Assembly: GCA_964647565.1 (NCBI GenBank)
Contig: CAZYIM010000014.1
Coordinates: 1 to 59,641 of the forward strand
Direction: 5' to 3'
Length of the DNA: 59,641 nt
Source: an uncultured Methanosarcinales archaeon
GTDB taxonomy: Archaea; Nanobdellota; Nanobdellia; Woesearchaeales; CAZYIM01
Below the pieces are notes generated by a model. The model was not told where the DNA came from. It saw only the letters and a list, made by a program, of their open reading frames with translations, and did not search any database. The translations under genes were made by a program, and so were the position numbers. Every line of letters begins with the position of its first letter. Position 1 is the first letter of the stretch. Positions 1 to 59,641 of the stretch are shown piece by piece.

Positions 1-740
1 CTGATAAAGATAATAAAGATATTATTGAGAATAACGAATCTGGCAGGAAGCCGAGACGTAAGTTCAAGGATGTATCCAAGGGCGAACCTGATTTTTCTGA
101 ATTTTTTCATAATGTAAGAGGGGATCATCTAAAAATGTTGTTTACTGAAGATGAAATAAAAATGACTAATCAACGGATTAAGACTGTTAATGATGGCCAG
201 TTTAGTTTAGAAGATCTTGAGGTGCAATGGAATAAGATTGCATTATTCCATAATGCAATAGTACCTATAGATGATTTTGTATTTCGCATGTTTGAACATC
301 AAATTCCAAAAAGAAAATTCCATCTTAAGATTTTAACAAAAAAGAGATTAGAGTATTATCTCAAGCCGTCTCCAGATCAATATGGGGATGCAATGGTAAG
401 ATTGTCTTTGCCACAACATGATGAGAATTTTCTCAATGCCAGCAACAATCGCATCAATCAGTACATCCAGGATTTAGCTGAGCATGACGGTCATTACAAT
501 CTTTCTATAGTTCCTTTAGATGGTGATACTCCGCAACGTAAAGGTCTTTATATCCCTATGTTGAGGACAGATCCAAGATTAAAGCCAGATATGCAATCTA
601 AGTTTGCCAATGTTTTTCTGATGAAATTTGATGCTAAAGAAGAATGTGTAGATTATTTTCACCTGAAATCACTGGATAACACGTCTGATGTTAAGGGATA
701 TCTGAAAAATACCTTGCAAAAATGGAGAAATAAAAAATGA
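1..740 (+). CDS. Array paralog 1, 5' truncated by window
   Basis: Frame of ORF 135..740 is open back to base 3 (DKDNKDIIENNESGRKPRR); bases 1-55 are identical to the 5' end of paralog 5; core GLYIPMLRTDPRL. Confidence 0.9.
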   Translation, partial: DKDNKDIIENNESGRKPRRKFKDVSKGEPDFSEFFHNVRGDHLKMLFTEDEIKMTNQRIKTVNDGQFSLEDLEVQWNKIALFHNAIVPIDDFVFRMFEHQIPKRKFHLKILTKKRLEYYLKPSPDQYGDAMVRLSLPQHDENFLNASNNRINQYIQDLAEHDGHYNLSIVPLDGDTPQRKGLYIPMLRTDPRLKPDMQSKFANVFLMKFDAKEECVDYFHLKSLDNTSDVKGYLKNTLQKWRNKK

Positions 741-1474
741 CTGAAAAGGATGATATAATCGAGAACCATACTTCTGGTAAGAAGCCGAGGAGGGTTCCTA
801 AGAATCCTGCTAAGATCGAGCACAGCTTTGAGATTATAGGATCTGGTGATAATGAAAAGGCCATCCTAAGGGCTTTTGACCAGGAATTCATAAAAATGAC
901 TAAGAAAAGAATTGAAGCGAGACCCCCCTCATTTAAATTCAAGCCAGCAAGATTTGATGAAAAATGGGCAGAAGTGGCAACATTTCATAACGACCTGACA
1001 GATATACTGGGCTTGATGACTGGTTACTTTCAACATGCCGGATACATACGGATTAATAATTCGTTTGGAAACGAATCAATCCTTGAATATTATACATCTA
1101 GCAATACTGAAAAAATAGGTTCTGTTTTTGCCAGATTTTCGCTTCCTAAATGGCACCATAATATGCTGGGGTGGACCAATGACCGAATTAATAAGCATAT
1201 CCGTGATTTGATGGAATCTTATTACCAGCTTACAATAGTGCCCTTAGAAGATTGGGAAAAGCCAATGGACAAAGGGCTCCTTATCCCTTTCGCGAAAAAT
1301 TATAGACAGATCCCTGAGAGTGCGAACAAAGATGATGATTATCATGTCTTTAGGTTAGATTATGATCGAAAGAACAACAAAGCCATGTGCAGCTATCAGG
1401 ATTCCATGACTTATAGTACTGGATGCCAAAACGAAATTAATGCCTTAATCAGTGACTGGAGAGGACGAAAATGA
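737..1474 (+). CDS. Array paralog 2 (245 aa)
   Basis: Leader TSGKKPRR; core GLLIPF; ATGA overlap; close to paralog 3. Confidence 0.9.
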   Translation: MTEKDDIIENHTSGKKPRRVPKNPAKIEHSFEIIGSGDNEKAILRAFDQEFIKMTKKRIEARPPSFKFKPARFDEKWAEVATFHNDLTDILGLMTGYFQHAGYIRINNSFGNESILEYYTSSNTEKIGSVFARFSLPKWHHNMLGWTNDRINKHIRDLMESYYQLTIVPLEDWEKPMDKGLLIPFAKNYRQIPESANKDDDYHVFRLDYDRKNNKAMCSYQDSMTYSTGCQNEINALISDWRGRK

Positions 1475-2208
1475 CTGAAAAAGATGATATTATTGAGAAC
1501 CATACGCCGGGTAAGAAACCGAGAAGGGTTCCGAAGCACCCTCCGAAGATCGAGCACAGCTTTGAGCTAACAAATAACATGAAATGGGAAAATAATATCC
1601 TGCAAAGTTTCGATCCTGAATTTGTCAGGAAGATTTATCAAAGAATATACGCAAAACCAGACTCAGTTAAATTCAATTCTCAAAATCTGGATAATAGATG
1701 GAGCGAAGTGGCTACATTTCATGATGATCTGGTCAATATAGTTGGTTTAACGGATAAATACTTTGTAAATCAAAAATATGTCCAGATAAACCAAACGATG
1801 CAAAATAATAATCAATTTAGAGAATATTATTTTTATGGCTATCATAGAGATCTTCAACAAATATTTTGCAGATTAGTACTGCCGTTTTGGAATCAGAATA
1901 TGCTTAATTGGCCAAATGATAAAATAGATACCTGTGTTGATAAATTAACAGAAAATATCTTTAATCTTACCATAGTGCCGATGAGCAGCAATAAGCCTAT
2001 GAATAAAGGCATTTTTATGCCGTTCTTAAAAAAGAGCCCTATGATGCCTGAGGCAGCAGAACCAGATGATCAGTTCTATATATTTAAGATGGACTATGAT
2101 CCTGAGAAAAAGACAGCCAAATGCAGCTATTATGATTCTGATAAAGATATCTCTTATTGTGATAATTCTATTCGGAGCATCATCCAAGAATACAGAGGAC
2201 GAAAATGA
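1471..2208 (+). CDS. Array paralog 3 (245 aa)
   Basis: Leader TPGKKPRR; same length as paralog 2, shares KIEHSFE, EVATFH and KPMxKG. Confidence 0.9.
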   Translation: MTEKDDIIENHTPGKKPRRVPKHPPKIEHSFELTNNMKWENNILQSFDPEFVRKIYQRIYAKPDSVKFNSQNLDNRWSEVATFHDDLVNIVGLTDKYFVNQKYVQINQTMQNNNQFREYYFYGYHRDLQQIFCRLVLPFWNQNMLNWPNDKIDTCVDKLTENIFNLTIVPMSSNKPMNKGIFMPFLKKSPMMPEAAEPDDQFYIFKMDYDPEKKTAKCSYYDSDKDISYCDNSIRSIIQEYRGRK

Positions 2209-12284: not shown

Positions 12285-12285
12285 A

Positions 12286-15463: not shown

Positions 15464-16333
15464 ATGAACAATAACTATAGTGTGGACGAATTATTTAGAG
15501 GGAAGGTAGTAGATACTGATGTAATCAAGAATCTAGAGTATAAACCCTGGATCAGAAAGAATGAGGGCTCTGGCAAGAAGAAAAAACAGCCAAAGAAAAG
15601 AATATCTTCAGATGGCAAGGTTAATCTCGGACTTTTCCTGACAGAATTAAAATACAAGCCCAAGGGTATGCTGGATCCGATTATAGATGAAGAGAGATTA
15701 AATGGGATCTTAGAGGATATAGGAATATATGATGAGACATTCAAGAAGGATTCAGTAAAAGAAAAGACATTCCTTGAAAACCATTTAAAGAACGGGCCTG
15801 ATTATGTCCATAAAGAGTACGTACCTATCTATCTTATAGCAGAACAGTTGTTCAAGAAAGGAAAATTTCTTTCAGATAAAAAAGAAGTGATCACTGAATA
15901 CTATATCTCTAATATCCCTTCCTGGCCCCAAATAGAATTGGTCTGGATACGATTGCCAATGTTTAAACAGGCTCATGAAAATCTTAAATATTTTGCAACA
16001 GATAATGACTATAAAAATGCTGTAGGAAGAATGCGTCATTGGCAAAACACTCTAGGCCTTAATATAATCCTAAAAGACAAATCAGGAGACAACTCGTTTA
16101 GGAGATCGCTTTACGTTCCTATGACACATAGTGATTCAAAGATGAATCCAGACACAATCAATCACAGATGCCACCTATTTCACATGTCACATTTCAAGAA
16201 ACCAAACAAGACCGAAGTCAGGTATTATGATATCTGTAATGATATCAAAACTTTGACCAATAGCATAAAAGAAGCAATATACGAATTCGCAGGAGGCGGA
16301 CCAAAAGATGATATACTTGGACCAGCAAGGTAG
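15464..16333 (+). CDS. Array paralog 21 (289 aa)
   Basis: Extension then EGSGKKKK; core LNIILKDK..LYVPMTHSDSKM..HLF. Confidence 0.9.
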   Translation: MNNNYSVDELFRGKVVDTDVIKNLEYKPWIRKNEGSGKKKKQPKKRISSDGKVNLGLFLTELKYKPKGMLDPIIDEERLNGILEDIGIYDETFKKDSVKEKTFLENHLKNGPDYVHKEYVPIYLIAEQLFKKGKFLSDKKEVITEYYISNIPSWPQIELVWIRLPMFKQAHENLKYFATDNDYKNAVGRMRHWQNTLGLNIILKDKSGDNSFRRSLYVPMTHSDSKMNPDTINHRCHLFHMSHFKKPNKTEVRYYDICNDIKTLTNSIKEAIYEFAGGGPKDDILGPAR

Positions 16334-17114: not shown

Positions 17115-17905
17115 TGGGTATTGTCAGACAAATAAGTAGTAAGTGGATTATGAAAGATGGAATCAAGGTCAATGAGAGCAGCGGAAGGAAGCCCCGCAGA
17201 TGGCCTAAGCCCAGATATTCATCAGACGGCAAGCATGATCTGGCTGAATTTGGCATCAAAGAGATTGATATAGACTTTATACACTATGCTAAATCTCAAC
17301 AACTTGATAAAACTGAAATAGTCCAGCGTTGGTTGCAAACGGTTGGAAAAAAGAACATGCGTGAGCTGGTCGATCATGATAAAATGCTGGCGGTCTTTTT
17401 CAAGGATCATCTTTCTTATCCTCGACTGGGAAAGCTCTGCATTAACCTATTCAAGAACGCAACAGTGTCATCCGCTTATACAGATAGGAAAGACAAGATG
17501 ACCTATTGGTTTACAGACATTCCACAATTTCCACAGATAGATCTTGCAATACTACAACTGCCAAGCGCAGGCATAAAATTAAAGGATCAGCCCTATAACT
17601 ATCTCGATCAATATCAAAAAACAGTACGGACTCTTGCATACAGGCCATCTGAATTCTTCCTTAACATCACTTTTGACAATAGTTATGATTATTATAAGAG
17701 AAGAAAGGCCATAATGATCCCTTATTGGTATCATCATCCATGGATGCCGAGCGATGGTAAAACATATCATGCGCGCGTGTTCGCAGCAGAGCATGATTTT
17801 CATCCAGAAATGACCCAATACAGGCATTTTGACATTGTCGAATCCTACGAGAGCCTTGAAAATAGTGTTAAAAAATCAATAGAGATGCATGGAGGTGGGA
17901 AATGA
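17111..17905 (+). CDS. Array paralog 23 (264 aa)
   Basis: GGAGGTG RBS; leader ESSGRKPRR; IPQFPQIDLA motif. Confidence 0.9.
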   Translation: MMGIVRQISSKWIMKDGIKVNESSGRKPRRWPKPRYSSDGKHDLAEFGIKEIDIDFIHYAKSQQLDKTEIVQRWLQTVGKKNMRELVDHDKMLAVFFKDHLSYPRLGKLCINLFKNATVSSAYTDRKDKMTYWFTDIPQFPQIDLAILQLPSAGIKLKDQPYNYLDQYQKTVRTLAYRPSEFFLNITFDNSYDYYKRRKAIMIPYWYHHPWMPSDGKTYHARVFAAEHDFHPEMTQYRHFDIVESYESLENSVKKSIEMHGGGK

Positions 17906-25548: not shown

Positions 25549-26326
25549 AGAACTAATCCAAGCAGGAAAAGGAAAGAAGCCTAGAAGAGTTAGGAAACCA
25601 TTCCCTGACAAGCCTATTAGTGAGGGCTATATCAAGAACAAGGACCTGAAGTTGTTTAATCCAGTTGAACCTGGTGAAGAAAGACCCTTTGAGATTCTTG
25701 AAGCCATTCATGGTTTTGGCCAGGGCAAGCTTCTAGAAAGAGGTTCGATATCAAGCAGAGTGAAATATGCAGGAAGAGGATTAGAATCAAGTTTCTATAG
25801 GATAAGCAATGTTGTTGAAAACCTGTTTGAAGGCGGGTACTATATTTCATATTTGAGCCAGAAGGTAAAATCCAATAAAATCATCAAGGGTGTAAAAGAA
25901 CCCGGTCTGATGACATATAGCATTACATCTGCTCCAGCATTTCCACAGGTTTTGTTGGCTCAACTCAAGGTACCCAATTTCAATGATGATATAGTCACAT
26001 TCAACAACACTGGTTTAGAAAAGAATGCCATCAAGAAACTTTATCAGATAGATCCGAACAATATCTGTTTGAGTGTTATATTTTCAAATGATAAATATAA
26101 AGCAGAACGTAGATGGATGCGAGGTCTGCTATTGCCTTTGACATCCCAGGATACAAGATTCTCTGAAGAATTCCAAAAAAGAACTGGCAATCTTCTCGTA
26201 TTGAGATACATGCTCCCCTCAGTGCATTACTGGCTCAACAACATCTTTGACTATTGCTCTGACCTGACTGAAGGTTTGAGGATAGCGCTCAACACAAAAA
26301 GAAACTACGAACCTCGAGGTAGCTAA
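25520..26326 (+). CDS. Array paralog 33 (268 aa)
   Basis: Leader QAGKGKKPRR; core GLLLPLTSQDTRF. Confidence 0.88.
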   Translation: MEHKAQDPNRELIQAGKGKKPRRVRKPFPDKPISEGYIKNKDLKLFNPVEPGEERPFEILEAIHGFGQGKLLERGSISSRVKYAGRGLESSFYRISNVVENLFEGGYYISYLSQKVKSNKIIKGVKEPGLMTYSITSAPAFPQVLLAQLKVPNFNDDIVTFNNTGLEKNAIKKLYQIDPNNICLSVIFSNDKYKAERRWMRGLLLPLTSQDTRFSEEFQKRTGNLLVLRYMLPSVHYWLNNIFDYCSDLTEGLRIALNTKRNYEPRGS

Positions 26327-27114
26327 TGACAGAAAAACTAATCAAAGCTGGACCTGGAAAGATAAAGAAGAAACGAAGGAATCTAAAAGTAGATCTGAAA
26401 TGTAATAATTTCCGAAATTCTAATATTAACACGTTTTTTCTAAGACAGATAAGAGGGAATCGTTCTGAGGGAAGACATTATCTGATGCCTGACCCTTCTG
26501 AACAAATTATTCGATATATCAATGATTTAGATCAGCCATTTGAATCCATTCAAAAAGAGATGAATAACGATTTTATACGAATAACATCTTTGACTGGTTC
26601 AGACTTTATGCGGTTAGATAATGTTGTTGAGAATATCTTCAAAAAATCTGAGGTCTCAATAACACACATTAAACATAGTAAATATTATCTTATTGGTAAA
26701 ATCAAGCAATATCCAAATATACATTATGCTGTTTTGAAGATCCCTTCTGCAGATTATTTAGAAGAGATAATACCTGAGAAAAGGTTTCATGCATCTGAGA
26801 AGAACAAGGTATCATTACTAAAGCAACTTTCATTCAAAATCAAATTCAAGCAAGGACTTGAAGATCCTAATAAACAAAACGGTCTGGTAATTTTCCAATC
26901 ATGTAAAGCCTCCAAGCTGGCAAATAAAACAGGATACTTGTCTTGGGATGATAACCACTATTCAAAGTATTTGGATAAACCAGTTAGTCATGTCATTTCC
27001 ACGTTTTACAGGGATAATAAAATCTATAGCCATTATTTGAATGGTTATTATGATACTAAGACTTTGGAAGATGGATTAAGACAATCAATAATGGAAATCT
27101 CTAAGGAAATGTAA
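26326..27114 (+). CDS. Array paralog 34 (262 aa)
   Basis: TAATG overlap; leader KAGPGKIKKK; close to 37. Confidence 0.9.
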   Translation: MTEKLIKAGPGKIKKKRRNLKVDLKCNNFRNSNINTFFLRQIRGNRSEGRHYLMPDPSEQIIRYINDLDQPFESIQKEMNNDFIRITSLTGSDFMRLDNVVENIFKKSEVSITHIKHSKYYLIGKIKQYPNIHYAVLKIPSADYLEEIIPEKRFHASEKNKVSLLKQLSFKIKFKQGLEDPNKQNGLVIFQSCKASKLANKTGYLSWDDNHYSKYLDKPVSHVISTFYRDNKIYSHYLNGYYDTKTLEDGLRQSIMEISKEM

Positions 27115-27120
27115 AAAACA

Positions 27121-27867
27121 ATGAAACAAAAAATAATCGATGCAGGAAGCGGGAAAAAGCCAAGAAGAATAAGGAAGATTACTGGCTGGTATGAGGGTGA
27201 AGTATTCCATAAATTTTCAGAGTATTCAGATGTGCAATCGTTGACAGGGGAGAAGACATGGCATCCCTTTGATATGTATGAAAAGATGATTCGAAAAACT
27301 AAACGCGAGATCAAGTTAAAAGGCAAGAATGATACAGTTCCAAAAATCAAATTGCATCCTGATTTCAATACAAAAAACCACGAGTTTGTAAGGATTGATT
27401 ATATTGCCAAGTTTTTTGCGGTTAATACCAAGCACACTGTTGTTAGTCATGATAGTTTTTTAAGCTTTGCTATGGATGAGAAAAATGAAAAATCAAATGT
27501 TGACCTGGTGAGATTGATGATTCCATATGAAAGTACGACGCCCCAACAATTGACACAAAATTTCAATGCAGGGCCTATCAGGGGAGCTATTGATCCTAAT
27601 CTCTTAGGTTTGTACATCTATCTGAAGAAGAAAGAAGATACTACAAGGACATGTCTGGTTGTGCCAATGTGCAAGAATCATAGAAATATAATCAAGCAGG
27701 TCAGCCATGTTTATGGTCATGTATTGATGCAGGATTGGATCTCGAGAAAAGACGAGGATTATGACCAATCCATTGTCAAATACCAAGGCGTATATGAGAA
27801 CAATTACAAACTGATTAACGGCCTTGCAAAGGCCTTAGGTGATTATGGATATGATATGTTAAAATGA
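27121..27867 (+). CDS. Array paralog 35 (248 aa)
   Basis: Leader DAGSGKKPRR; RTCLVVPM..YGH; close to 38. Confidence 0.9.
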   Translation: MKQKIIDAGSGKKPRRIRKITGWYEGEVFHKFSEYSDVQSLTGEKTWHPFDMYEKMIRKTKREIKLKGKNDTVPKIKLHPDFNTKNHEFVRIDYIAKFFAVNTKHTVVSHDSFLSFAMDEKNEKSNVDLVRLMIPYESTTPQQLTQNFNAGPIRGAIDPNLLGLYIYLKKKEDTTRTCLVVPMCKNHRNIIKQVSHVYGHVLMQDWISRKDEDYDQSIVKYQGVYENNYKLINGLAKALGDYGYDMLK

Positions 27868-28679
27868 CTGAACTAATCAAGGCAGGAAGCGGGAAAAAGA
27901 AAAAAAGAATGAAGAAAAAGATTAAGATAGTTGGCAGTGGGATCATACGGCTTGAAGATTTCAATCATATAATCAAAAACGAGGCTGAAAAACTAGGATT
28001 TATCGATGTTTTCCATAATGGTTATGAAATTTCAAAACGAGCGAGGATAATAAAGGATGAGGGTGTTGTCAGGCAGGATGATTTTTTTGAAGAGGTAATG
28101 TATTTCATGGGGATGCAAAAAAATAAGCTTAACCTAATAAAAAAAGATGTCAGATTCTTCAACCTCTCTGAACTTGCTGATCTTATGAGTTTCAGCTATA
28201 AAACGAATACGCAGATAGAACATAAGAAGCTAAGAAAGTATCTTTTTACAGATCTTGATAATTACCCTGAAATAGAGCTGATCGAGTTAAATATACCGCA
28301 TGTGACCAAGAGAACATTAAAATCAAGGATGAAAGGAGGTCTTGAATGGACTTATAGCCGTAATATTCACAGTGTCTTCAAGGAAAAATACCCAGTTGAA
28401 AACTTCACAATGCAGATCATATTCAATCAAAATAAATTAACCCTTTATCAAAAATCTATAAATGAGTTCGATGATAGATATGCTGTCAGTCTTCTTATAC
28501 CCATGTTCAACAGTGACAGGAGGATATCTGACCAGTTGAGAAATAAAGAAGCTAATATATTTGTACTGTACCATTATCAAAACTACACCAAGATCAAATA
28601 CTATGATGTCTGCGACTCAAAGGGGGACCTTGAGAAAAAACTGAAAACAGCAATAAAAAATTACGGAATAAGAAAATGA
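27864..28679 (+). CDS. Array paralog 36 (271 aa)
   Basis: Leader MTELIKAGSGKKKK; SLLIPMFNSDRRI; close to 39. Confidence 0.9.
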   Translation: MTELIKAGSGKKKKRMKKKIKIVGSGIIRLEDFNHIIKNEAEKLGFIDVFHNGYEISKRARIIKDEGVVRQDDFFEEVMYFMGMQKNKLNLIKKDVRFFNLSELADLMSFSYKTNTQIEHKKLRKYLFTDLDNYPEIELIELNIPHVTKRTLKSRMKGGLEWTYSRNIHSVFKEKYPVENFTMQIIFNQNKLTLYQKSINEFDDRYAVSLLIPMFNSDRRISDQLRNKEANIFVLYHYQNYTKIKYYDVCDSKGDLEKKLKTAIKNYGIRK

Positions 28680-30192: not shown

Positions 30193-30983
30193 CTGAACTA
30201 ATCAAGGCTGGAAGCGGGAAAAAGAAGAAAAAAGCTAAGATAAAGGTCAAGGTAGATGGCAAGCTGATAAGATTGGCTGATTTTAATCATAGGATTGATG
30301 ATCACAATGAATTATGGGGAACCTCTAACGTAGACAAGCAATATTCTACAATTTCAGAACGCGCATATTTTGTTAGGACCAATGGTTTTGTAAGACAGAA
30401 TGATTATGGAGAGGAAGCTGCTTATTTTAACATAATTAAAGGCATAAAACCTGATTTTGTGAATTTATGTTCCTTTGCAGATGTGATGAGATTTTCATTT
30501 GATAAGAATATGCTGATTGAGAGTAAAACAACAAGATTCTATGCATTTGCAGGCTTGAAGGATTATCCAGAGATAGAATTAATCGAGCTTAGGATTCCCT
30601 TTGTAAAGAAAAAGATGCGACAATCTGTGATTAAAGGAGGCTTGGCATGGAACTATCATGAATACCTGGTTCCGGGAGTGTTCAATGGAAAGACACAAGT
30701 GGAGGATTATTCTTTGCAGATAATATTTTCTCCGATGCAGACAGCATTATTCCACCGTTCAATAGGCGAACCCGAACCGGATTATAAGACCAGTCTCCTA
30801 ATACCTATGTTCAATTCAGATAAAAGAATACCTGAAGTCTTAAGGAAAAAAGAAGGCCACATATTTGTATTTAATAATTATGAAACACATTCAAAACTTA
30901 GCTATTATGATGTGGCTGACACGATGAAGACTCTAGAGACCAAGCTAAAGACAGCTATAAAAAACTATGGAATGAGAATATGA
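30189..30983 (+). CDS. Array paralog 39 (264 aa)
   Basis: Leader MTELIKAGSGKKKK; YPEIELIEL and SLLIPMFNSD match 36. Confidence 0.9.
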   Translation: MTELIKAGSGKKKKKAKIKVKVDGKLIRLADFNHRIDDHNELWGTSNVDKQYSTISERAYFVRTNGFVRQNDYGEEAAYFNIIKGIKPDFVNLCSFADVMRFSFDKNMLIESKTTRFYAFAGLKDYPEIELIELRIPFVKKKMRQSVIKGGLAWNYHEYLVPGVFNGKTQVEDYSLQIIFSPMQTALFHRSIGEPEPDYKTSLLIPMFNSDKRIPEVLRKKEGHIFVFNNYETHSKLSYYDVADTMKTLETKLKTAIKNYGMRI

Positions 30984-42754: not shown

Positions 42755-43680
42755 TGATGGAGATTGAGCTTCGCAAGGCATATTCCCAAAGTGTTGACAT
42801 GTATGGCAGGACTATCTATTATGATGTAGATGGTAAATCATACACTGAAGAAGGTCCTGGCAAGAAGAAGAAAAGAAGGAAGAGCATCATGACGCAGCTG
42901 AGGACAGCCCGAATAGTACCTAAAAACAATACCAATCCTGAGCCAATCCGATATGAGGGCGTACTTGAATGGCTGCGAGAATATGATTATAACACAGAAC
43001 AGAAACTGCAGAATATGATCAAAAGGGATTTGCGCGAAGGCAAGAGACAGTATTTTACAGGATATAACTTTTTCCATATGGATACTCTTTTACAGAAAAA
43101 GGCAGAACAAGATCTAAAAATAGTAAGAGTTGACTTGTTAGCGAACAGGCTTTTCAAGCACTGCCAGATGGATTATATTCCGAGCAAGGAGTATCTTAGG
43201 ACTGCAGATGGCACTATTGACAAAACAAAAACGCTTGACTGTTACACAATTGAGCTTAAAAACCTCCACAAGGTTCCGAGTGTGGAACTTGTAGTTGCAC
43301 AATTTCCTGCTATTAAAGACAGTAAAGTCGATAACAATATCCCACTCTCAGAATATATGCTGGATTTTGAGCATTTTAGGATGTTTCGGATGAGCATCAT
43401 ATTCAAGAAGAAACAAGGCAAGAGACAGGCTTTGGTAATACCCCTATATATGGGTGGCTGGGATAAAAACTCCATTTCAATATACATAACTAAAGAGCAG
43501 TTTGAAAATTGTCCTGAACAATTGAGAAAAACTTCTGCAAACGTCTATGCAAAACTACACTACACACCCAACATCCTGTCAAATAATCCAGAATTCTGTT
43601 TTGTGGACGGTTACTACAACCAGGATTCTTTAGAACGCGGAGTAGAAGACGCCATTAAGAAGTACGGGGGTGGTTCTTGA
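42754..43680 (+). CDS. Array paralog 55 (~308 aa)
   Basis: GTG 42754 or ATG 42757; leader EGPGKKKK; KIVRVDLLAN and MFRMxIIFK shared with 54. Confidence 0.9.
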   Translation: MMEIELRKAYSQSVDMYGRTIYYDVDGKSYTEEGPGKKKKRRKSIMTQLRTARIVPKNNTNPEPIRYEGVLEWLREYDYNTEQKLQNMIKRDLREGKRQYFTGYNFFHMDTLLQKKAEQDLKIVRVDLLANRLFKHCQMDYIPSKEYLRTADGTIDKTKTLDCYTIELKNLHKVPSVELVVAQFPAIKDSKVDNNIPLSEYMLDFEHFRMFRMSIIFKKKQGKRQALVIPLYMGGWDKNSISIYITKEQFENCPEQLRKTSANVYAKLHYTPNILSNNPEFCFVDGYYNQDSLERGVEDAIKKYGGGS

Positions 43681-44504
43681 TGGGAGTGGTACCACCAACT
43701 ATGCCAATCAAACCTAAAGCTCTGCTTCCTGAAGACTTCTTCCTTGAGCTTGGCTACACAGGCCGGCGCAAAATAGCAGAAGGTATCAAGCATCAGCCTT
43801 CCAGCGGCAAGAAAAAGAAGATGACCAAACTGGATGCGAAATATTACCGGATTATGAGAGAATATAATAAGCAATTAACAGGTCATTGGATATCTGCAGG
43901 TATTATCAATCCTATACTTCAACTTGTTCTAGGTTGGAATTTAGATGATATAAGGCAAAAAGGAGAGATCTATAGTCATCTTAACAGAGTCAAATATGCT
44001 CCGCAACCGTTAGGTGAACTTTCACTAGATCCGGACATTTTTGATTTAATATTGACTGGCTCAAAATTCGAAGTAAAGAATGAAAAAATATACATGGCGC
44101 TCTATTGTGTCGACATACCAGATTACCCAGGCATCTCATTGGCAAAGTTGGGCATACCCAAACTGTTAGAGATTGGAATGCCAAATGAGTACGCACAGGA
44201 AATTAAGCAAGATGTCCTAAACCTAAATCTTGTTTTTAAGTACGGAACCAATCATTTCAACAAACATTATGAAGGCCTGATCATCCCAATGACACGGGAA
44301 GACAACAGGATACCTGAGCAAACCAAGCACATCTACGGACATATATTCTCTTATGTTGTAAAGCCAGAGACAATAAGTTCTATATCTTATTGCGACATCA
44401 AATACTACGGTCTCTACAACTCATACAAACTGCTAAAAGAAGGCCTAGAACGAGCCATAACAGACCACGGAGGAAAAACCAATAATGAAAAAGATTATTA
44501 TTGA
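43680..44504 (+). CDS. Array paralog 56 (274 aa)
   Basis: TGATG overlap; extension then HQPSSGKKKK; core GLIIPMTREDNRIP..GHIF; close to 58. Confidence 0.9.
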   Translation: MGVVPPTMPIKPKALLPEDFFLELGYTGRRKIAEGIKHQPSSGKKKKMTKLDAKYYRIMREYNKQLTGHWISAGIINPILQLVLGWNLDDIRQKGEIYSHLNRVKYAPQPLGELSLDPDIFDLILTGSKFEVKNEKIYMALYCVDIPDYPGISLAKLGIPKLLEIGMPNEYAQEIKQDVLNLNLVFKYGTNHFNKHYEGLIIPMTREDNRIPEQTKHIYGHIFSYVVKPETISSISYCDIKYYGLYNSYKLLKEGLERAITDHGGKTNNEKDYY

Positions 44505-45237
44505 AGCAGGACCTGGTAAAAGAAAGAAGCATCCTAAATCATTGAGAAAGTTGTATCCAGATAGTCCGATCGCTAATGATAGCGATTATATCAGGAGGAT
44601 CCAAAACTATAAACTTGGTATATTGACTGATCCGACTTTCTTTAAAAACATAAAATCAAAAAAAAGTGATGTTAAGAAAAATGGTAAAATCTTAACCACT
44701 CATGTAATCTCTCATCTTGACAGTTTTCTCGAGCCAGAGATATATCATAGATATAATTTTGCGCGGGTTGATCTGTTGCTGGAACAGTTGTTTGATGGGT
44801 CTAAAGTAATAAGCAAAAAAGACAACTCTATGATTAATTTCACTATTCTCCCTCCCAAGAAATTAGAAAATGTCGATTTGATTTATTTGGATGTTCCTCT
44901 TGTCGGATATAGACATGATTTAGACAGATGGGACATTCTGGCAGACACCAACAGGAGTGTGCTTAATGTCTGCCTGAACCAAAACGTGTTTTCTAAATCC
45001 GTAATAAGATACAGCTTAGTGATTCCAATAGATCCTAAGGATGCAAGAAATCCACAGAAGACAGATTTTATCAGAGATATACAATTTTCAGGCATATATG
45101 ATAACTTCTATGCGCACATATTGAAAGCACAGATCAACATCGAGACTGGAGATATCAAATACAGTTATCTTGACAGCTATTTCACCCATAAAGGGCTTGA
45201 AGCTGGATTCAAGAAATACATGAGGGATACTAAATGA
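44485..45237 (+). CDS. Array paralog 57 (250 aa)
   Basis: GGAGG RBS; leader EAGPGKRKK; close to 59. Confidence 0.9.
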   Translation: MKKIIIEAGPGKRKKHPKSLRKLYPDSPIANDSDYIRRIQNYKLGILTDPTFFKNIKSKKSDVKKNGKILTTHVISHLDSFLEPEIYHRYNFARVDLLLEQLFDGSKVISKKDNSMINFTILPPKKLENVDLIYLDVPLVGYRHDLDRWDILADTNRSVLNVCLNQNVFSKSVIRYSLVIPIDPKDARNPQKTDFIRDIQFSGIYDNFYAHILKAQINIETGDIKYSYLDSYFTHKGLEAGFKKYMRDTK

Positions 45238-45275
45238 TAGGAGTATTAGATGAATATTTGGAATGATATAATAAA

Positions 45276-46082
45276 ATGGATGCAGAAGAGTTAAAACGTC
45301 TTTATCCCCCAGGTCCTAATATTGAAATTTTACCTAAGGATTTCTTTGTTGAACTTGGCTATAGTGGAAGGCGCAAAGACCCTGATAATCTTGTCCACCA
45401 GCCAAGCAGTGGAAAGAAAAAGAAGATGACCCGGCTTGTAGCTAAATATTACAAAATAATGAAGGAATATAAGGGCGGATCGCTTGGCACGTTTAATGAT
45501 GAAGGTATTATAAACCCGATATCACATAAGTCATGGGGATGGGTATTTGACGAGATCAAAGAGAACGGACAGGTTTTTAACCCATATAAATATGCAGATA
45601 AACTTATTGGTATGAATGATGTTATATTTGAAGTGCTGGGAAAAGCGACGTTTATCTCCAAAATCGAGAATCTTTGCCTTGGACTTTATATGAAGGACAT
45701 ATTGGGATTCCCTGGCATCACATTAGCAAAACTAGGTCTTCCAAAATTTAAGGAAGATCTTACGTTTAATGAGAACAGATTAAAAGAAAGATACGATGAT
45801 ATTAGCCTTAACTTTGTATTCAAATACAATAATAAAACTAACAAGGAGCACTATGAAGGCATTGTGGTGCCTTTATTAACTAATAAAGACAGAAGAATAC
45901 CTGATGAAACAAGATATATATTCGGCCATATATTTTCTTATGTTGTCAAAGATGATGAAAATACGTCTTTATCATTTTGTGATATCAAATACTATGGACT
46001 CTACAGCACACAGGGATTGTTGATACAAGGCCTGAAGAGAGCCATAATGGATCATGGAGGAAAATCCTATAATGAAGAATAA
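45276..46082 (+). CDS. Array paralog 58 (268 aa)
   Basis: DFFVELGYSGRRK and HQPSSGKKKK as in 56; preceded by an in-frame mini-ORF at 45234-45266. Confidence 0.88.
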   Translation: MDAEELKRLYPPGPNIEILPKDFFVELGYSGRRKDPDNLVHQPSSGKKKKMTRLVAKYYKIMKEYKGGSLGTFNDEGIINPISHKSWGWVFDEIKENGQVFNPYKYADKLIGMNDVIFEVLGKATFISKIENLCLGLYMKDILGFPGITLAKLGLPKFKEDLTFNENRLKERYDDISLNFVFKYNNKTNKEHYEGIVVPLLTNKDRRIPDETRYIFGHIFSYVVKDDENTSLSFCDIKYYGLYSTQGLLIQGLKRAIMDHGGKSYNEE

Positions 46083-46851
46083 TATTATTGAGGCTGGAAG
46101 CGGGAAAAGGAAGAAGCATCCAAAATCTATTAGAGCTTTGTATCCTATGCTTCAATCAGTTTTTAAAAACCAGCATGCCTATCAAAAGAGGATCGAGAAC
46201 TATAATTCTGATATTATTAATAATTTAGATATCTATAAAAATCTTGAATCACATATAGGAGAGATCAATGAAACCGGGACTACTTTAAATAAGTCAAAAA
46301 TTTCTTTACATAGCTGCTTCATAATACAGCCCATTCTTGAAAAATATAATTTTGTCAGGCTTGATCGACTTGTTGAAAAATTCTTCAAGGGAGCAAAGTT
46401 CATAGTTAATAGAAAATTCAACTCAGACCAATACCTGATTGTACCGCCCGAATCATACCGCGACATAGAGATGCTGATATTAGAATTGCCAAATGTAGGC
46501 AATAGGATTGTTGATAATCAATGGGTTCTTTTTGATGATAAAACTAAACATGTGCTGAGTATTATCAAGAAACAAAAAAAATATGAAAAAGGCAAACCAA
46601 GAAATGTTGTTGTTATACCTTTGGATCCTAAAGATCCCAGGAATCCTCAAAAGGCAGATTTCCAAAGAGCTTTCCAGAAAAAAGGCTTTTGTGACGGTTT
46701 TTATGCACATATACTGCTAGCACAGGTTGAACCTGATAAAAATCAGGTCAATTACATCTATCTGGACAGTTGCTTCAGCCATAGAGGATTTGAAAAAAGG
46801 TTCAATATCTATATGAAAAACTACGGAGGTCTGCTTCATGATGTATTTTGA
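46072..46851 (+). CDS. Array paralog 59 (259 aa)
   Basis: Start moved to MKNNIIEAGSGKRKK after GGAGG; DPKDxRNPQKxDF shared with 57. Confidence 0.9.
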   Translation: MKNNIIEAGSGKRKKHPKSIRALYPMLQSVFKNQHAYQKRIENYNSDIINNLDIYKNLESHIGEINETGTTLNKSKISLHSCFIIQPILEKYNFVRLDRLVEKFFKGAKFIVNRKFNSDQYLIVPPESYRDIEMLILELPNVGNRIVDNQWVLFDDKTKHVLSIIKKQKKYEKGKPRNVVVIPLDPKDPRNPQKADFQRAFQKKGFCDGFYAHILLAQVEPDKNQVNYIYLDSCFSHRGFEKRFNIYMKNYGGLLHDVF

Positions 46852-47629
46852 AAAACCAATCAGAGCAGGAAGCGGGAAGATAAAAAAAAGAAAAAAGACC
46901 AAGATCAGACTTAGTGATGGAAATGTAAAATATCTTGAGGAATATAAGAATAAAAGAAAGTTTTTTTGGTCTACCATTGTAAATCCGTATACAGACGGAT
47001 ATGAAATTAATGGAATTAAAGACAGGTTAAAAAACGTAAAAATGGATGTACAGCCTTTTGTCAAAGAGACAGCAACATTGGATTATGAGACTCTTCAATA
47101 CCTGAATTATACCAACCTCGGGAAGATAGTTGATAACCTTTTTACACCTTCAAAATATCGATATATTACTGACATGGATGATTCCAATGTTTATGATATC
47201 CTCCCTTCAAGACTCTATCATATTGAATTTGTCAGATTAAAATTACCTCACATTCTAAGCCATTGGAAAAGTTTAGCATCAACAATGGACGACCTAGATT
47301 TCTGGACAAAAAGAACTAGAGACGTGCTGAAATTCTATTTCGGCGCTAACTCAGTTAAACCTTGGTCATTACAGATCTTATTCAAGCAGACAGCTGAGCA
47401 AAAAAAATCCGAACCTGAATATCGCGAGAGTATGTTAGTGCCTATGTTCCAAAAAGACGGACGAGTCGCCAGAAAATTGAGAAATGTACCTGATGCCCAT
47501 TCACATATCCTAAGATTGAAACACACTCGAAAACGTACCAGGATTGAATACTACAAGATTTGCTACTCGATGGAGCAACTAGAAAACCAACTCCATGACA
47601 TAATCCATCACTATGGGAGGAATAGATGA
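46838..47629 (+). CDS. Array paralog 60 (263 aa)
   Basis: GGAGGT RBS; leader RAGSGKIKKRKK; core LQILFK..VPMFQKDGRV..HIL. Confidence 0.9.
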   Translation: MMYFEKPIRAGSGKIKKRKKTKIRLSDGNVKYLEEYKNKRKFFWSTIVNPYTDGYEINGIKDRLKNVKMDVQPFVKETATLDYETLQYLNYTNLGKIVDNLFTPSKYRYITDMDDSNVYDILPSRLYHIEFVRLKLPHILSHWKSLASTMDDLDFWTKRTRDVLKFYFGANSVKPWSLQILFKQTAEQKKSEPEYRESMLVPMFQKDGRVARKLRNVPDAHSHILRLKHTRKRTRIEYYKICYSMEQLENQLHDIIHHYGRNR

Positions 47630-48339
47630 AAGAGCTAATCAAAGCAGGATCCGGGAAAAAGAAGAAGCAGATGAAAGTTCAGATTAAATATAAGAAGCTT
47701 CTTTCAAGCTATTCTCTTTCTTTTGAAAAACCTCCAAATGGAATATGGCCTGTTGACTTATGGATGGCTATGGCACCTGCCAAGCTAGAGACTGCAAAAA
47801 TAGATGCTTTGCAGATTAAAGATGGTTGGCTGACCAAAGACAAGTATTATAGAAATTTACTAGGTGCTGCAGAAATCCCTGATATAGGATTAGTCATTGA
47901 TAATATTTTTAAAGACTCTTACTATCTACAATATTACCATAAATTCTTATGCCATTATTATTTTTTCGGTACTGACAAAGTGCCTGGAGTTGCTATAGGT
48001 CAACTTACGATTCCGAAACTTGAAGATTATAAAAATAAATGGCCTGTTGAAGGAACAGATGACTACAAACAGAATCCTGACAATTTTGGACTAAATCTTA
48101 TCATAAAGAAAAATAAGAAGTCAAAGTATGTTACAGCAGTTCTTTTCATCCCTCTGTCACGCCATGACAGCAGGATCCCTGATGAAACCAAAGAAGAATA
48201 CTGTCATATCTTCAACCTTGATTATCTGACAAAAGGTGATGTTATTTTCAAATACTGGGATATATGCAGGACAGAAACCAATATTGAGAAAAGCATTCGA
48301 AATGCGATAAAAGTATATGGAGATAATAGGATAAAATGA
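47626..48339 (+). CDS. Array paralog 61 (237 aa)
   Basis: GGAGG RBS; leader KAGSGKKKK; core FIPLSRHDSRIP..HIF; close to 62. Confidence 0.9.
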   Translation: MKELIKAGSGKKKKQMKVQIKYKKLLSSYSLSFEKPPNGIWPVDLWMAMAPAKLETAKIDALQIKDGWLTKDKYYRNLLGAAEIPDIGLVIDNIFKDSYYLQYYHKFLCHYYFFGTDKVPGVAIGQLTIPKLEDYKNKWPVEGTDDYKQNPDNFGLNLIIKKNKKSKYVTAVLFIPLSRHDSRIPDETKEEYCHIFNLDYLTKGDVIFKYWDICRTETNIEKSIRNAIKVYGDNRIK

Positions 48340-50694: not shown

Positions 50695-51493
50695 ACCTGA
50701 GAGCGGAAAGAGAAAGAAAGTCAGGAAAGTGGAAGGCTTCCAGGCTGAGAAATGGGGCTATGTAGAGCTTTATGATTATATCGAGATTGTTGATTTCGGC
50801 CATAAGAGCAAAGGAGAAATTCGAGAGCGAGATGATATTTTAATCGAAGCTTCAAGAAAAGACGCTAAAAAATCAAAGCTTAGACTTGACGAAGAAGCAA
50901 TACTCATACCAGATGAATATTTTGATAAAAACAAACACCTGATGCGGCTTGACAAGATCGCCTTAGAGTTATTCAAGGATTGTCGATATAAAATTGAAAT
51001 AGGGGAAAGGGCAAATTACCTTGCATATGAAATCTATGTCCAAGACATTTATCCAGGTATAGATGTTGTGCAGGTTTCACTGCCTAATTTCAAGAACCTT
51101 AAAAATGATTACAAACCCAAATTTGTTGATAGATTATTATACGGAAGGCTATTTAAGCAACTTGCTGCACAAAATAAAAAACACAAATTTTCTGAGGATG
51201 AACTTTGCATGAAGATAATTTTTAAGAAGAAAAACGATAATGAAAGAACAGAACTCTTCTTGCCGATGAGCGACAATCATGAGGTCATACCCAATGCCCT
51301 AAAAGGCTCAGCCTACCATCTCTTGAAATTTACCTACAAATATAGATATGGGCAAATTGAAAACGATAAAGGCAGAATGACCAGCCAATCTCACGACACA
51401 TCTTTTATCGAAGTACAATATGCAGGCCTTTACAACTTCAAATCACATCTCATCAATGGAATAAAGCAAGCAATAGAAGAAAGAACAAAATGA
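50675..51493 (+). CDS. Array paralog 65 (~270 aa)
   Basis: Start uncertain (50675 or 50681); leader PESGKRKK; core LFLPMSDNHEVIP..YHLL. Confidence 0.87.
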   Translation: MQMIINKPESGKRKKVRKVEGFQAEKWGYVELYDYIEIVDFGHKSKGEIRERDDILIEASRKDAKKSKLRLDEEAILIPDEYFDKNKHLMRLDKIALELFKDCRYKIEIGERANYLAYEIYVQDIYPGIDVVQVSLPNFKNLKNDYKPKFVDRLLYGRLFKQLAAQNKKHKFSEDELCMKIIFKKKNDNERTELFLPMSDNHEVIPNALKGSAYHLLKFTYKYRYGQIENDKGRMTSQSHDTSFIEVQYAGLYNFKSHLINGIKQAIEERTK

Positions 51494-52323
51494 ATGAACC
51501 AATCGAAGCAGGAAGCGGGAAAATAAAGAAAAAAAGAAAACCAGTAGCAGTGAATGCTATAGCTAGAGGAAATGGCATAATAACGCCCCATTTTGAAGGA
51601 TGGATGGTTTCTGATGGTTTTAAGAAAATCACAAAATCTGTTAAGATATTTAATGATGCTGAAATAAGCGACCTAGATTATTTTGATGACTTATATAATA
51701 AAAACCAGTTGCTTTTCAATATTCGAGAGCTCGGCAAGAGATTGAGTGGTTCAAGATATTTCTTAGACAATCGTCATGATATCAGATTTTCTAAAAAACC
51801 TGGACTTTGTTGGAATTACTTCTTTGATAAGGTGCCAGACTATCCAGAAATCAAGATGGGCGTTATGCATCTGCCTAAAGTTGATCGAGAATTTTTAAAA
51901 TCTGCATTAGAAGCAAATCCTCAAACTAGTTTGTATTTTGACACAAGAAATCATGAAATAAATCCATATTATTGGAAAGTCCCTGAATTAGCTGCAATCT
52001 GGCAACCTATCACAGAAAAGGGTCAGCTCGCATTCAATCTGCAGCTCTTTTTTGATTATGAAAAGGCCTAGACATGCAAAGGCATCTATGTTCACTTGTT
52101 GTAAGGGTTCTCAAGAATACCTGATCAGAATACAGAGAACAAATGGCATATCTTTACTGTGGACTATGACTTAAAAGAATATAATCACAAATTCCAATAT
52201 CATGACACCATGAGAACAGATTATACTCATGAATGCTCAAGAAAAGCAGATGGAAAATGCAATTACCAAGAACATTTCTGGCACTCACTAGAAGATGCAA
52301 TAAAAAAATACGGAACAAAATGA
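51490..52323 (+). pseudogene. Array paralog 66, interrupted by in-frame TAG (52069-52071) and TAA (52102-52104)
   Basis: Reading through both stops in frame gives KGIYVHLL*GFSRIPD..WHIF..SLEDAIKKYGTK and ends at a TGA overlapping the next ATG; matches the C-terminus of paralog 8. Confidence 0.85.
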
Positions 52324-53970: not shown

Positions 53971-54070
53971 AACAGGACATTTTCTGGATCAGTGGGATGA
54001 AGAACTGACCTATCAGGACAAATGGGGGCAATGGCATTTTGAATCAGAAGTTGTGGATGATAAAAAATGA
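53207..54070 (+). CDS. Array paralog 68 (287 aa)
   Basis: Leader EAGSGKRKK; FCNIPRFMDIEIAY and GLLVPLTK shared with 67. Confidence 0.9.
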   Translation: MNEIIEAGSGKRKKRRKSLRGIFSDKILMNWDFRKEMQLHTNGTVHPNLERDLIKKQIRIMDKENNIFKRRWFDDERFFQKLTNDTSFVRVDKFIDQYFEGANFTVYGRIGHSYELQFCNIPRFMDIEIAYFSYPHIDNEYTLDYVLSKNHNEYFTFNILFKKEDAKKKNIVGLLVPLTKNDQRVPNYYSLNSELQEGRDFSFLDNSYAHILEMEYKRVDKAQWYHDGYFDHETFEEGLLKAINKHNKHIGRSVVTGHFLDQWDEELTYQDKWGQWHFESEVVDDKK

Positions 54071-54984: not shown

Positions 54985-54985
54985 A

Positions 54986-58123: not shown

Positions 58124-58905
58124 AAGAAAAACTATACGATCCGGGAAGCGGGAAAAAGAAGAAGCATCTGAAGAGTCTCAGGAATTCAGTGATTGGGCAT
58201 GGATATATACCATTCTTTTTAAGAGAGCAGTTAGCAGAAAAAAGATTTAAAGGTTTTGTTGATCCGATCAGGAATAATGATCTGCTTCTTGATATCCGGG
58301 CCAATATCCCTAATGGAGGTGATAAGACAATAAAGGGCTTTTTTGAAGATGACCTTGCACTTCATATCACTTCATATAATAAGAAAATTATTGACGATAT
58401 TGAGAATCTTGTTCGGGATGTTTTGGGGGATGGATATTTCAAGCGAATGGAGGATGATAGCCGGCGGATATATGCATTCTCAGGATTTTGCGACTGTCCA
58501 AATGTTGATATGGCATTATTGAATTTTACAGGATTCGTTTCCGCGCATCGGCCAACAAAGGACAAAAGTTATCTGGACAAACTGCCATCACTAGAAAACG
58601 CTCTTTATATCCTGCTGAAGAAGACAACAGACAAATATGGTCATTTTAGCCAACACTGCCTGATAGTTCCGCTTGGAAATAAAGATCCCTGGTTAAAACT
58701 CTTCCTCAGGGATAGACATGTAACTTTCAAAAAAAAGATACGCAGAACAAATGCTTATTTCTACAATAATATATACGCAGGCGATGCGTCTGCTTATGAG
58801 AGTATGAAGCTCTACTATTATGATGGCTACTTCTCACGAAGTACATTTATCAGAGGCCTAAAACAGGCAATTGAACTCAAGGGGGACTGGAAACGTGACT
58901 ACTGA
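58120..58905 (+). CDS. Array paralog 74 (261 aa)
   Basis: Leader DPGSGKKKK; LYILLK..CLIVPL..YYDGYF. Confidence 0.9.
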   Translation: MKEKLYDPGSGKKKKHLKSLRNSVIGHGYIPFFLREQLAEKRFKGFVDPIRNNDLLLDIRANIPNGGDKTIKGFFEDDLALHITSYNKKIIDDIENLVRDVLGDGYFKRMEDDSRRIYAFSGFCDCPNVDMALLNFTGFVSAHRPTKDKSYLDKLPSLENALYILLKKTTDKYGHFSQHCLIVPLGNKDPWLKLFLRDRHVTFKKKIRRTNAYFYNNIYAGDASAYESMKLYYYDGYFSRSTFIRGLKQAIELKGDWKRDY

Positions 58906-59641
58906 ACTAATTGATGCAGGAACATCGAAAAAGAAGAAAAAGCTTAAGAGTCTTAAAAATACCGTTAGTAAGACGATCCAGCTACCCTTTTGGAATAGAG
59001 AACATTTTGAAATGTTCGGTGGTGAAAATGTTTTTATTGATCCAATATTTCATAAAGAATTATTGACCCATCTATGGTTTGATGTTCATAATTCAAACAA
59101 CAATAATCCTACAAACTTTCTTGAGACAAAGTTAGAAGAGACAAATGACTTGCTAAAGCATTCTAAAGTAAAAGAGGTCTTCAATGAAATTTTCAAGGGA
59201 TGCATATACAAAAAATATAGAACAGAAAAATATGAAACATTTGTTTTTACTAAGTTTCCTGGGAATGATAACATTGATATGGCGATATATAATGCTAAAG
59301 ATTATTTTACCAATCCTTTTAAACAAGAAAAAGAACCGGAAAATGAATTTCATGAATTATTTGACGGCTTAAGCCAAAATCTTTATATCCTGCTAACTAA
59401 ATCAGAAGATCAAAGATGCCTGATTATACCAACCTCAGTCATAGGAGATTCTTGGCTTGAACATTTTAAACCAAATTGGCTAAATTCAAAAGAAAAAAAA
59501 GCCCTTAAAAAATCTAATCACTATTTCTATAATTGTATTACATCACCTAGCTCTATTAAACAAAATATCATGAAACTAAATTACTATGACGGCTACTTTA
59601 CTAGAAGCGCCTTCATCAGATGCCTAAAACAGGCAATTGAA
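58895..59641 (+). CDS. Array paralog 75, 3' truncated (absent from the supplied ORF track)
   Basis: GTG at 58895 opens MTTELIDAGTSKKKKKLKSL; frame is open to the window end, finishing MKLNYYDGYFTRSAFIRCLKQAIE, very like 74. Confidence 0.88.
   Translation, partial: MTTELIDAGTSKKKKKLKSLKNTVSKTIQLPFWNREHFEMFGGENVFIDPIFHKELLTHLWFDVHNSNNNNPTNFLETKLEETNDLLKHSKVKEVFNEIFKGCIYKKYRTEKYETFVFTKFPGNDNIDMAIYNAKDYFTNPFKQEKEPENEFHELFDGLSQNLYILLTKSEDQRCLIIPTSVIGDSWLEHFKPNWLNSKEKKALKKSNHYFYNCITSPSSIKQNIMKLNYYDGYFTRSAFIRCLKQAIE

Follow-up and report, generated by a model that had tools for sequence, protein, structure and literature searches.

The DNA analysed here, called the window throughout, is the whole of contig CAZYIM010000014.1 (C14; 59,641 bases) of assembly GCA_964647565.1, the draft genome of a marine DPANN archaeon of the Woesearchaeota type. 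The window is filled by a tandem array of paralogous genes, all of which encode members of a single protein family. Its 75 open reading frames (ORFs), 193-367 residues long, span positions 3 to 59641, and only 99 of the 59,641 bases fall outside a family ORF or the one pseudogene. An earlier note on this DNA had described one family throughout, with all genes on one strand, no other gene interspersed and both ends open, and our analysis bears out each part of that description. Sixteen further ORFs of at least 100 residues (15 on the minus strand and one on the plus strand) gave no Pfam match, and searches of the window for tRNA and Rfam families returned none.

When compared by BLASTP at E <= 0.001, 716 of the 2,775 protein pairs are linked, and single linkage joins 74 of the 75 window proteins, leaving out only the product of the gene at 54067-54984. 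The earlier note had made its claim of a single family depend on whether a profile hidden Markov model would join all the members. A profile built from 37 full-length copies encoded outside the window, and thus independent of it, matched all 75 of the window proteins, with no E-value above 4e-13. Run against all 4,624 ORFs of at least 80 residues in the genome, the same profile found no match beyond the six contigs that carry the array. Conversely, a profile of the 75 window proteins identified 42 more ORFs in the genome, either copies or fragments, distributed over contigs C56 (15), C68 (9), C69 (8), C1 (6), C36 (3) and C7 (one, weak). The alignment consensus has the core LxIxFK..GLxIPL..DxRxP..HxF..Y..LxxGxxxAI, thereby reproducing the conserved motif that had been read from the window by eye, and adds the N-terminal motifs G-x4-NP, LFxGxxY and IPxxPxIxxAxLxxP.

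The copies are old, and each has been kept intact by purifying selection. Over 243 well-occupied columns of 127 aligned sequences, pairwise identity has a median of 20% and a maximum of 69%, reached between the first window gene and the last full gene of contig C56. Even the 12 closest pairs differ at a proportion of synonymous sites (pS) of 0.40-0.78, with a synonymous divergence (dS) of at least 0.56; two of these pairs are saturated, and in the other ten the ratio of nonsynonymous to synonymous divergence (dN/dS) is 0.10-0.40. Exactly one of the 75 genes is disrupted, as had been noted before. This pseudogene has two in-frame stops and no frameshift, and it still ends in ..EDAIKKYGTK at the C-terminus and still joins the following gene through an ATGA junction. 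In a simulation of neutral evolution, stop-free genes fell to 3% at 0.1 substitutions per site and to 0.5% at 0.2. Since 74 of the 75 genes are intact, chance is excluded, and the selection on each copy that the earlier note had supposed is upheld by the intact frames, by the dN/dS values and by the simulation alike.

The order of the genes reflects how the array grew. For 25 of the 75 genes the best match is the direct neighbour, compared with a mean of 1.7 and a maximum of 11 under permutation, and for another 26 genes it lies two to five genes away. Runs of genes with a constant best-match distance of three (26326-30983) and of two (43677-46851) indicate block duplication of a three-gene and of a two-gene unit; within the former, for example, the genes at 27864-28679 and 30189-30983 share 53% identity. 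The coordinates of these and other features are given in Table 1.

Table 1. Features of the array within the window (contig CAZYIM010000014.1).
Feature	Position	Strand	Remarks
Central array piece	1..59641	+	75 family genes in tandem; the contig ends truncate the first and last
First gene	3..740	+	Open 5' end, short of the first few codons only
Member used for model 1	15464..16333	+	289 residues; leader motif displaced to about residue 35
Example of a gene junction	17880..17905	+	GGAGGTGGGAA followed by ATGA
Three-gene unit, present twice	26326..30983	+	Six genes, each with its best match three genes off
Two-gene unit, present twice	43677..46851	+	Four genes; best matches two genes off, 51% and 42% identity
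Member used for model 2	47626..48339	+	Compact typical member, 237 residues
Sole pseudogene	51490..52323	+	Frame kept; TAG at 52069, TAA at 52102
Last gene	58871..59641	+	Open 3' end; break inside a repeat of the preceding gene junction

Contigs C56, C68 and C69 likewise consist of family genes only, so that four of the six array contigs, the window included, hold family genes alone and owe their placement to binning and end matches. The head of the array lies on C1, where it starts at position 4251 on the minus strand and is contiguous with 144 kb of that contig. The word TTTATAAA stands about 45 nucleotides upstream of this start, where a gene for a HAD-type hydrolase is divergent. The tail lies on C36, ends at position 2166, and is contiguous with 22 kb that begin, 23 bases on, with a purM-like gene (TIGR00878, E 1e-61, below its cut-off). 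Of the joins between contigs, that of C14 to C68 is supported by the C-terminal sequence IELKGDWKRDY and a stop codon, which are absent from the last window gene and are encoded, in reverse orientation, at the start of C68. At the join of C69 to C36, the end of the former and the start of the latter overlap with a single mismatch, and the join is spanned by a 315-residue protein of another public assembly (P0061). The partial genes at C1/C56 and those at C68/C69 cover complementary parts of the family profile. The simplest chain, C1(reversed)-C56-C14-C68(reversed)-C69-C36, contains about 114 genes in 91,254 bases, or 3.4% of the assembly; sequence supports its joins C14-C68 and C69-C36 only, and we infer the others.

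The earlier note had proposed to inspect the flanks for, among other things, a recombinase and a secretion system; genes for neither were found at the array ends. Each flank (L001 7855-15883 on C1; L002 4985-5875 on C36) encodes a protein of about 295 residues with an N-terminal AbrB/MazE domain. The head flank on C1 additionally encodes a Fic/DOC protein, a triple-CBS protein and a 1,377-residue Kelch/fn3/Big_13 protein.

With most array contigs placed by binning and end matches, the array might be an artefact of repeat mis-assembly or mis-binning, or might represent sequence of a virus or of another organism. Public metagenome contigs that match the window point the same way: two of their joints have short sides of 21-22 letters, and loose ends recur at 50088, 51514 and 51520. 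We nevertheless consider an artefact highly improbable. No two copies are more than 69% identical, which makes collapse or duplication by the assembler unlikely; the head and tail are each contiguous with further sequence of C1 and C36, and the overlap of C69 with C36 is corroborated by the spanning protein from another assembly. The GC content of the array is 36.8% against 38.4% for the genome, and the PHROGs collection of phage proteins yielded nothing of note, namely three families each matched weakly by one of the 75 proteins (E 0.002-0.005; three proteins in all). Furthermore, four public marine metagenome runs from two studies contain 61-80% of the sampled words of 20001-30000. Contigs of those runs at >=99% identity cover all 30 bins into which 39642-59641 is divided, and no substitution or indel is listed for them; the bins of the pseudogene are likewise covered with no listed difference. 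These contigs are short (word depth about 2-6). The source sample may, moreover, be among the runs, and their support is therefore not fully independent.

The loose ends at 50088, 51514 and 51520 probably reflect DNA shared among the leader-coding segments described below. In all four runs, the bins 49647-50313 and 50981-51647 have a word depth 3-4 times that of the other bins; taken with the loose ends, this extra depth could stem from alternative neighbours, from strain variants or from shared leader DNA.

The encoded protein is typically about 260 residues long and begins with a polybasic leader of the consensus [IL]-I-x-A-G-S-G-K-[KI]-[KP]-[KR]-[KR]. The leader occurs in two flavours, AGSGK(K/I)KK and (E/T)SG(R/K)KPRR, and lies within the first 8-17 residues in most copies, a few having N-terminal extensions of 30-110 residues. 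One such extension, in the gene at 34883-35611, contains the single, trivial tandem repeat of the window, a 17-base unit present 2.1 times at 34916-34951, ahead of the leader motif. Of all segments of the protein, the leader is the most conserved, with an entropy of 1.8-2.2 bits as compared with 2.5-3.8 bits in the body. Its motif Gly, which the search pattern fixes, is encoded by all four codons (GGC 41, GGA 29, GGG 29 and GGT 8 of 107), and its Ser by both AGY and TCN codons. Thus, the leader is conserved at the level of protein.

Outside the family, a loose regular expression for the leader matched none of the 4,507 other ORFs of at least 80 residues in the genome, a weak result given that it recovered no more than 53 of the family's own 117 ORFs. 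The strict back-translated pattern I-x-A-G-S-G-K-K-K-K occurs at 13 places in the genome, all of them within the array, and at none in 200 other genomes of the order (reversed control, 0). A solitary 221-residue gene on contig C7 (4333-4998, minus strand) carries the leader VVEAGTGRKPRR at residues 23-34; its product matches the profile at positions 8-101 only and has a different C-terminal body. Its neighbours are a PIN gene, a gene for an MNT-like nucleotidyltransferase, and a DUF4258 and DUF2283 pair. Judging by this gene, the leader may be portable.

The proteins appear to be soluble. A 19-residue Kyte-Doolittle window exceeds 1.6 in only one of the 75, and the N-termini are polybasic without a hydrophobic stretch; hydrophobicity windows, rather than a dedicated predictor, thus reveal neither a signal peptide nor a membrane anchor. 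The median isoelectric point (pI) is 9.3, and 8.7 when the leader is left out. Such properties would suit binders of nucleic acid, be they chromatin, RNA-binding or regulatory proteins, in which the polybasic tail would contact DNA or RNA and the variable domains would provide specificity. The leader contributes 5-7 Lys or Arg residues to this argument, and its variant SGRKPRR is one that we take to resemble an AT-hook. Still, we regard this explanation as unlikely. The searches described below revealed no family or fold that binds DNA or RNA, 13 of the 75 leaderless bodies are acidic (pI < 6.5), and basic proteomes are common in AT-rich genomes. Moreover, we know of no chromatin or regulator family that occurs in arrays of some 114 tandem genes.

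Junctions between the genes are tight. When the ATG closest to the leader motif is taken as the start, 53 of the 74 junctions overlap, and the overlap is of the 4-base ATGA type at 33 of the 74 (35 of 74 when the longest ORFs are taken). A GGAG, GAGG, GGTG or GGGG word lies 4-20 nucleotides before 44 of the 74 starts, as against 7.0 +/- 3.0 at in-gene control positions. The 3' end of the 16S rRNA, GATCACCTCCT, pairs with words of the GGAG type. At the junction 17880-17905, for instance, the upstream codons for ..HGGGK hold a Shine-Dalgarno-like GGAGG, and the stop codon overlaps the next start. From these words and the 16S end we conclude that the C-terminal ..YGGGK motif doubles as the ribosome-binding site of the following gene, and that neighbouring genes are probably coupled in translation. 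The conservation of Y-G-G-G-K at the C-terminus of most genes may partly be a constraint at the RNA level.

To describe the body of the protein, we modelled two members with AlphaFold2. Model 1 (15464-16330, from 75 alignment rows) reached a predicted local distance difference test score (pLDDT) of 81.2 and a predicted TM-score (pTM) of 0.76, and model 2 (47626-48336, from 125 rows) a pLDDT of 87.3 and a pTM of 0.85. Both models are confident and combine helices at the N-terminus with an antiparallel sheet of seven strands and a long helix at the C-terminus. The leader of model 2, MKELIKAGSGKKKK, occupies residues 1-14 (pLDDT 77-85), the strands of the alpha/beta body lie at 99-130, 155-176 and 193-214, and the C-terminal helix at 217-232. 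Variable, indel-rich stretches fall at residues 21-50, 101-110, 131-150, 161-170 and 201-210 of the 237-residue reference; they are mostly loops in the model, but 21-50 includes helices and 101-110 is a strand. Among the 127 aligned sequences, the conserved columns of the body are mostly hydrophobic, Pro or Gly, and the top polar columns (Asp 67%, His 67%, Arg 57%) are none of them invariant. Prediction of a homodimer gave scores of 0.00 and 0.00, which is no answer and speaks neither for nor against binding.

The family had not been recognised in the earlier note, and the databases did not change this. None of the 75 proteins scored above a Pfam family cut-off (one matched DUF3782 at E 0.009, below its cut-off), NCBIfam returned one weak match to a single protein (E 0.006), PADLOC returned none for any of the 75, and PHROGs returned the weak matches given above. 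The 125-row profile, searched against PDB sequences, met CENP-C at E 0.5 and nothing else. Foldseek found nothing at E <= 0.001 in the PDB with either model, nor in BFVD with model 1. VIA-align, run over 48,161 chains, gave best Z-scores of 5.6 and 5.4 (TriTu immunity protein, PebS, Med17 and others), under the tool's noise level of Z 7-8, and the best score in the ESM Atlas, 0.76, was below the level of a lead. The predicted fold therefore has no recognised relative, yet a missing match is no proof of newness. Our search of the literature found no description of the family or of the array.

These same searches bear on the idea that the proteins are enzymes or small-molecule binders with varied pockets, for example of a helix-grip-like kind. 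The top Foldseek rows were START, Bet v 1 and PYL ligand binders, none of them significant (E >= 0.04, probability <= 0.21, TM-score <= 0.33 and mostly <= 0.25), and the bilin reductases PebS, PcyA and PebA stood among the top VIA-align rows with Z 4.7-5.4 and a root-mean-square deviation of 4.1-5.4 A over 119-131 residues, again below Z 7-8. Because all structural matches, with TM-scores of at most 0.33 and Z of at most 5.6, are at the level of noise, and no polar residue is invariant, we hold such a function to be quite improbable. As for one specific candidate, a TauD-like Fe(II)/2-oxoglutarate dioxygenase (6l86_A) appeared at E 0.036 with the 75-row profile and was absent with the 125-row profile; the family has no invariant His or Asp from which the HxD...H metal triad of such enzymes could be built, and we rejected this assignment.

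The genome that carries the array comprises 2,676,741 bases in 86 contigs, is estimated to be 86.9% complete and 1.85% contaminated, and contains archaeal small- and large-subunit rRNA genes. Its 40 nearest relatives belong to the same order but to other families and have genomes of 0.6-2.1 Mb. At 2.68 Mb it exceeds all 200 listed relatives of the order (0.6-2.3 Mb). Subgroups of the Woesearchaeota are reported to average about 1-1.4 Mb (PMC8421398).

Beyond this genome the family is sparse. An exhaustive HMMER search of 1.84 billion representative proteins returned 113 matches at E <= 0.001, 94 of which are identical to the genome's own copies, while four are either near-identical or, in another assembly, full-length forms. 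This leaves 15 distant clusters, 21-35% identical in tblastn alignments, which four of them did not yield. Where named, the distant homologs come from 'Candidatus Woesearchaeota' and 'Nanoarchaeota' archaea. They keep the C-terminal core DLSLDILLK..SLRIPL..DxRIP..GHxF..SY..LExGI..AI and are devoid of the polybasic leader. Many of the distant homologs (P0082, P0089, P0095, P0110, P0093 and P0100; L022 3623-5178) start instead with twin GG[ILM]xPC or TTG(G)HD(D)CMRPL motifs, whose role might, as a guess, be metal binding or lipidation. With the 75-row profile, none of the 40 nearest relatives was seen to have the family; a profile of the distant homologs found it in one of 400 other genomes of the order, in a single copy (G292), and the 125-row profile in none of 400 other genomes of the phylum. 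A scan of metagenome contigs with the distant homolog P0089 revealed no relative, and no fused or longer form of the family was present among 8,000 candidates scored, which is weak evidence.

Two of these outlying occurrences have the following neighbours. The single copy in G292 adjoins a PadR gene and a fragment of a phage integrase. In a Woesearchaeota draft genome of 2.3 Mb (L022 184-6529), two tandem homologs stand behind genes for MoxR (AAA_3), an AAA_14/DUF4143 ATPase and DUF58; the pair is followed by a Cys-rich orphan of 441 residues and, just beyond and on the opposite strand, by an AbiEii gene. The orphan, used as a query, was not found in the genome that bears the array.

If the organism lived as an episymbiont, its proteins could be directed at a host, the polybasic N-terminus serving as an address or anchor into or onto the partner cell, for example by way of cytoplasmic bridges. 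This is the main rival to the interpretation that we come to below, and we think of it as possible, though doubtful. It draws on the conservation of the leader, which exceeds that of every other segment and reflects selection on the protein, on the small genomes of the related DPANN archaea, on the assignment of the named homologs to Woesearchaeota or Nanoarchaeota, and on the solitary C7 gene, whose leader on another C-terminal body hints at a portable element. Cytoplasmic bridges of 9-11 nm between a DPANN cell and its host have been reported, and a transfer of material by this route proposed (PMC11001535). Several observations do not fit well with delivery into another cell. There is no signal peptide or membrane segment and no secretion gene at the array ends. 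The leader was seen on none of the 4,507 other ORFs by the loose, insensitive expression, and the strict pattern in none of the 200 other genomes of the order, so that no shared delivery signal is evident; the distant homologs bear other N-terminal motifs. Finally, the status of a symbiont is presumed, and the genome is 2-3 times the size of those of its relatives.

In its boldest form, this explanation would make the array the effector arsenal of an episymbiont or predator, with more than 100 proteins of a new fold that share a polybasic address and enter partner cells independently of Sec. We offer this form only tentatively and with still more reserve. In oomycete RxLR-WY and Plasmodium PEXEL effectors, an N-terminal motif exceeds the body in conservation, divergent surfaces are displayed on a conserved fold, and paralogs number more than 100, features that the array shares. 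In RxLR and PEXEL proteins, the motif is preceded by a Sec signal peptide, and the genes are scattered or form small clusters; in contrast, the array proteins have no signal peptide and their genes stand in a single gapless row. Should the array be such an arsenal, the RxLR and PEXEL systems would have their counterpart in archaea, and the leader would be the first delivery motif known for DPANN archaea.

The interpretation that we rank first, at a probability of roughly 0.3, is that the array specifies a repertoire of proteins that are made together, act inside the cell, and bind or neutralise their targets rather than catalyse reactions. In this it would be similar to a polyimmunity locus, by resemblance rather than by membership. 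The proteins would be a set of binders made together on a shared scaffold, and their common polybasic leader would tether them to a polyanionic surface, for example nucleic acid or the acidic inner face of the membrane. Each copy would recognise a different target, and the targets would be diversifying foreign proteins (for example toxins, viral proteins or proteins of partner cells) met inside the archaeon's own cell.

The roles put forward in the earlier note (defence, anti-defence, toxin immunity or host-interaction effectors) could be narrowed only to a repertoire of non-enzymatic binders, since no polar residue of the family is invariant. More broadly, the constant scaffold and leader, the variable loops, the lack of a catalytic signature or secretion signal, the coupling of the genes and the preservation of some 114 old copies together point to a binding repertoire that is needed in bulk. 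That about 114 intact and very old copies take up 3.4% of a 2.68-Mb genome is strong evidence for a function that requires many specificities at once. The location of the distant pair beside AbiEii and MoxR-DUF58 genes, and of the G292 copy beside PadR and an integrase fragment, also counts for a repertoire of this type.

Homogeneous polyimmunity loci, as described by Zhang et al. (2012; PMC3482391), consist of tandem paralogs of one immunity family, for example SUKH, arranged as an operon and made together. As the polyimmunity locus is the nearest known arrangement, we place a role in recognising or neutralising proteins within the cell ahead of the others. Both there and here, many tandem paralogs of one small, soluble family without conserved catalytic residues are packed in an operon-like manner on a single strand, and no toxin gene lies within the array. 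Polyimmunity loci are marked by at least four co-directional, operon-like paralogs, of which the window has 75 and the whole array about 114; often, though not necessarily, by a neighbouring recombinase; and by a recognised immunity family or linkage, in some genomes at least, to a toxin gene, of which we found no sign in Pfam or PADLOC (0 of 75) or in three genomic contexts. The two also differ in scale and setting, since polyimmunity loci comprise from a few to about 20 genes and are bacterial, whereas the array has about 114 and is archaeal. Unlike those loci, the array shows no sequence relation and no clear fold relation to Imm or SUKH proteins, its proteins are larger (about 260 residues) and share a constant polybasic leader, and no recombinase is adjacent.

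Several of these points weigh directly against a polyimmunity-like repertoire, and others join them. No toxin gene was found beside the array or at three readable loci that bear homologs, and none of the 75 proteins passed a Pfam cut-off, those of the Imm and SUKH families included. To our knowledge, no immunity protein described so far has anything like the constant polybasic leader. In place of a recombinase, a HAD hydrolase gene and purM flank the array. Inhibitor and immunity proteins did occur among the VIA-align rows (TriTu with Z 5.6 and 5.2, Rv3902c, AcrIIA11, PsiB), but these matches, too, lie below the noise level of Z 7-8. Two results bear on whether all copies would be made together: TATA-like hexamers are not enriched before the internal genes, and sense-strand runs of T are as frequent as in other genes, T5+ runs occurring at 1.84 versus 1.75 per kb and T6+ runs at 0.63 versus 0.55 per kb in the array and in 1,303 other long ORFs, respectively. 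Since these runs are not depleted, a single transcript of 90 kb is unlikely. Polymorphic toxin systems are described as rare in archaea, and extended polyimmunity loci as seen in only four bacterial phyla, in the relevant passages of the study cited above (PMC3482391). The largest polyimmunity example given in those passages has 19 genes, far under the roughly 114 of the array (PMC3482391).

Tandem arrays of divergent paralogs occur in small-genome, host-associated microbes as well, a likeness that extends to our array. The surface lipoprotein arrays of Mycoplasma and the vls and msp2 cassettes of Borrelia and Anaplasma encode secreted or lipidated antigens and operate through on/off switching or silent cassettes, and they include many partial copies. 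In contrast, the proteins of the archaeal array are soluble and without a signal peptide, and their genes are full-length with starts of their own.

In conclusion, repertoires of tandem paralogs are known as a kind, and what has no known precedent here is the family, its predicted fold, the leader, the DPANN host and the scale. DPANN archaea are known for reduced genomes, and the array is a clear case of how tandem and block duplication can enlarge a genome, in a lineage whose evolution is thought to be dominated by loss. It also constitutes a natural library of more than 100 variants of one scaffold. If the array is indeed an immunity-like or an effector repertoire, it would offer a first approach to the means by which these uncultured archaea fight other cells or manipulate them.

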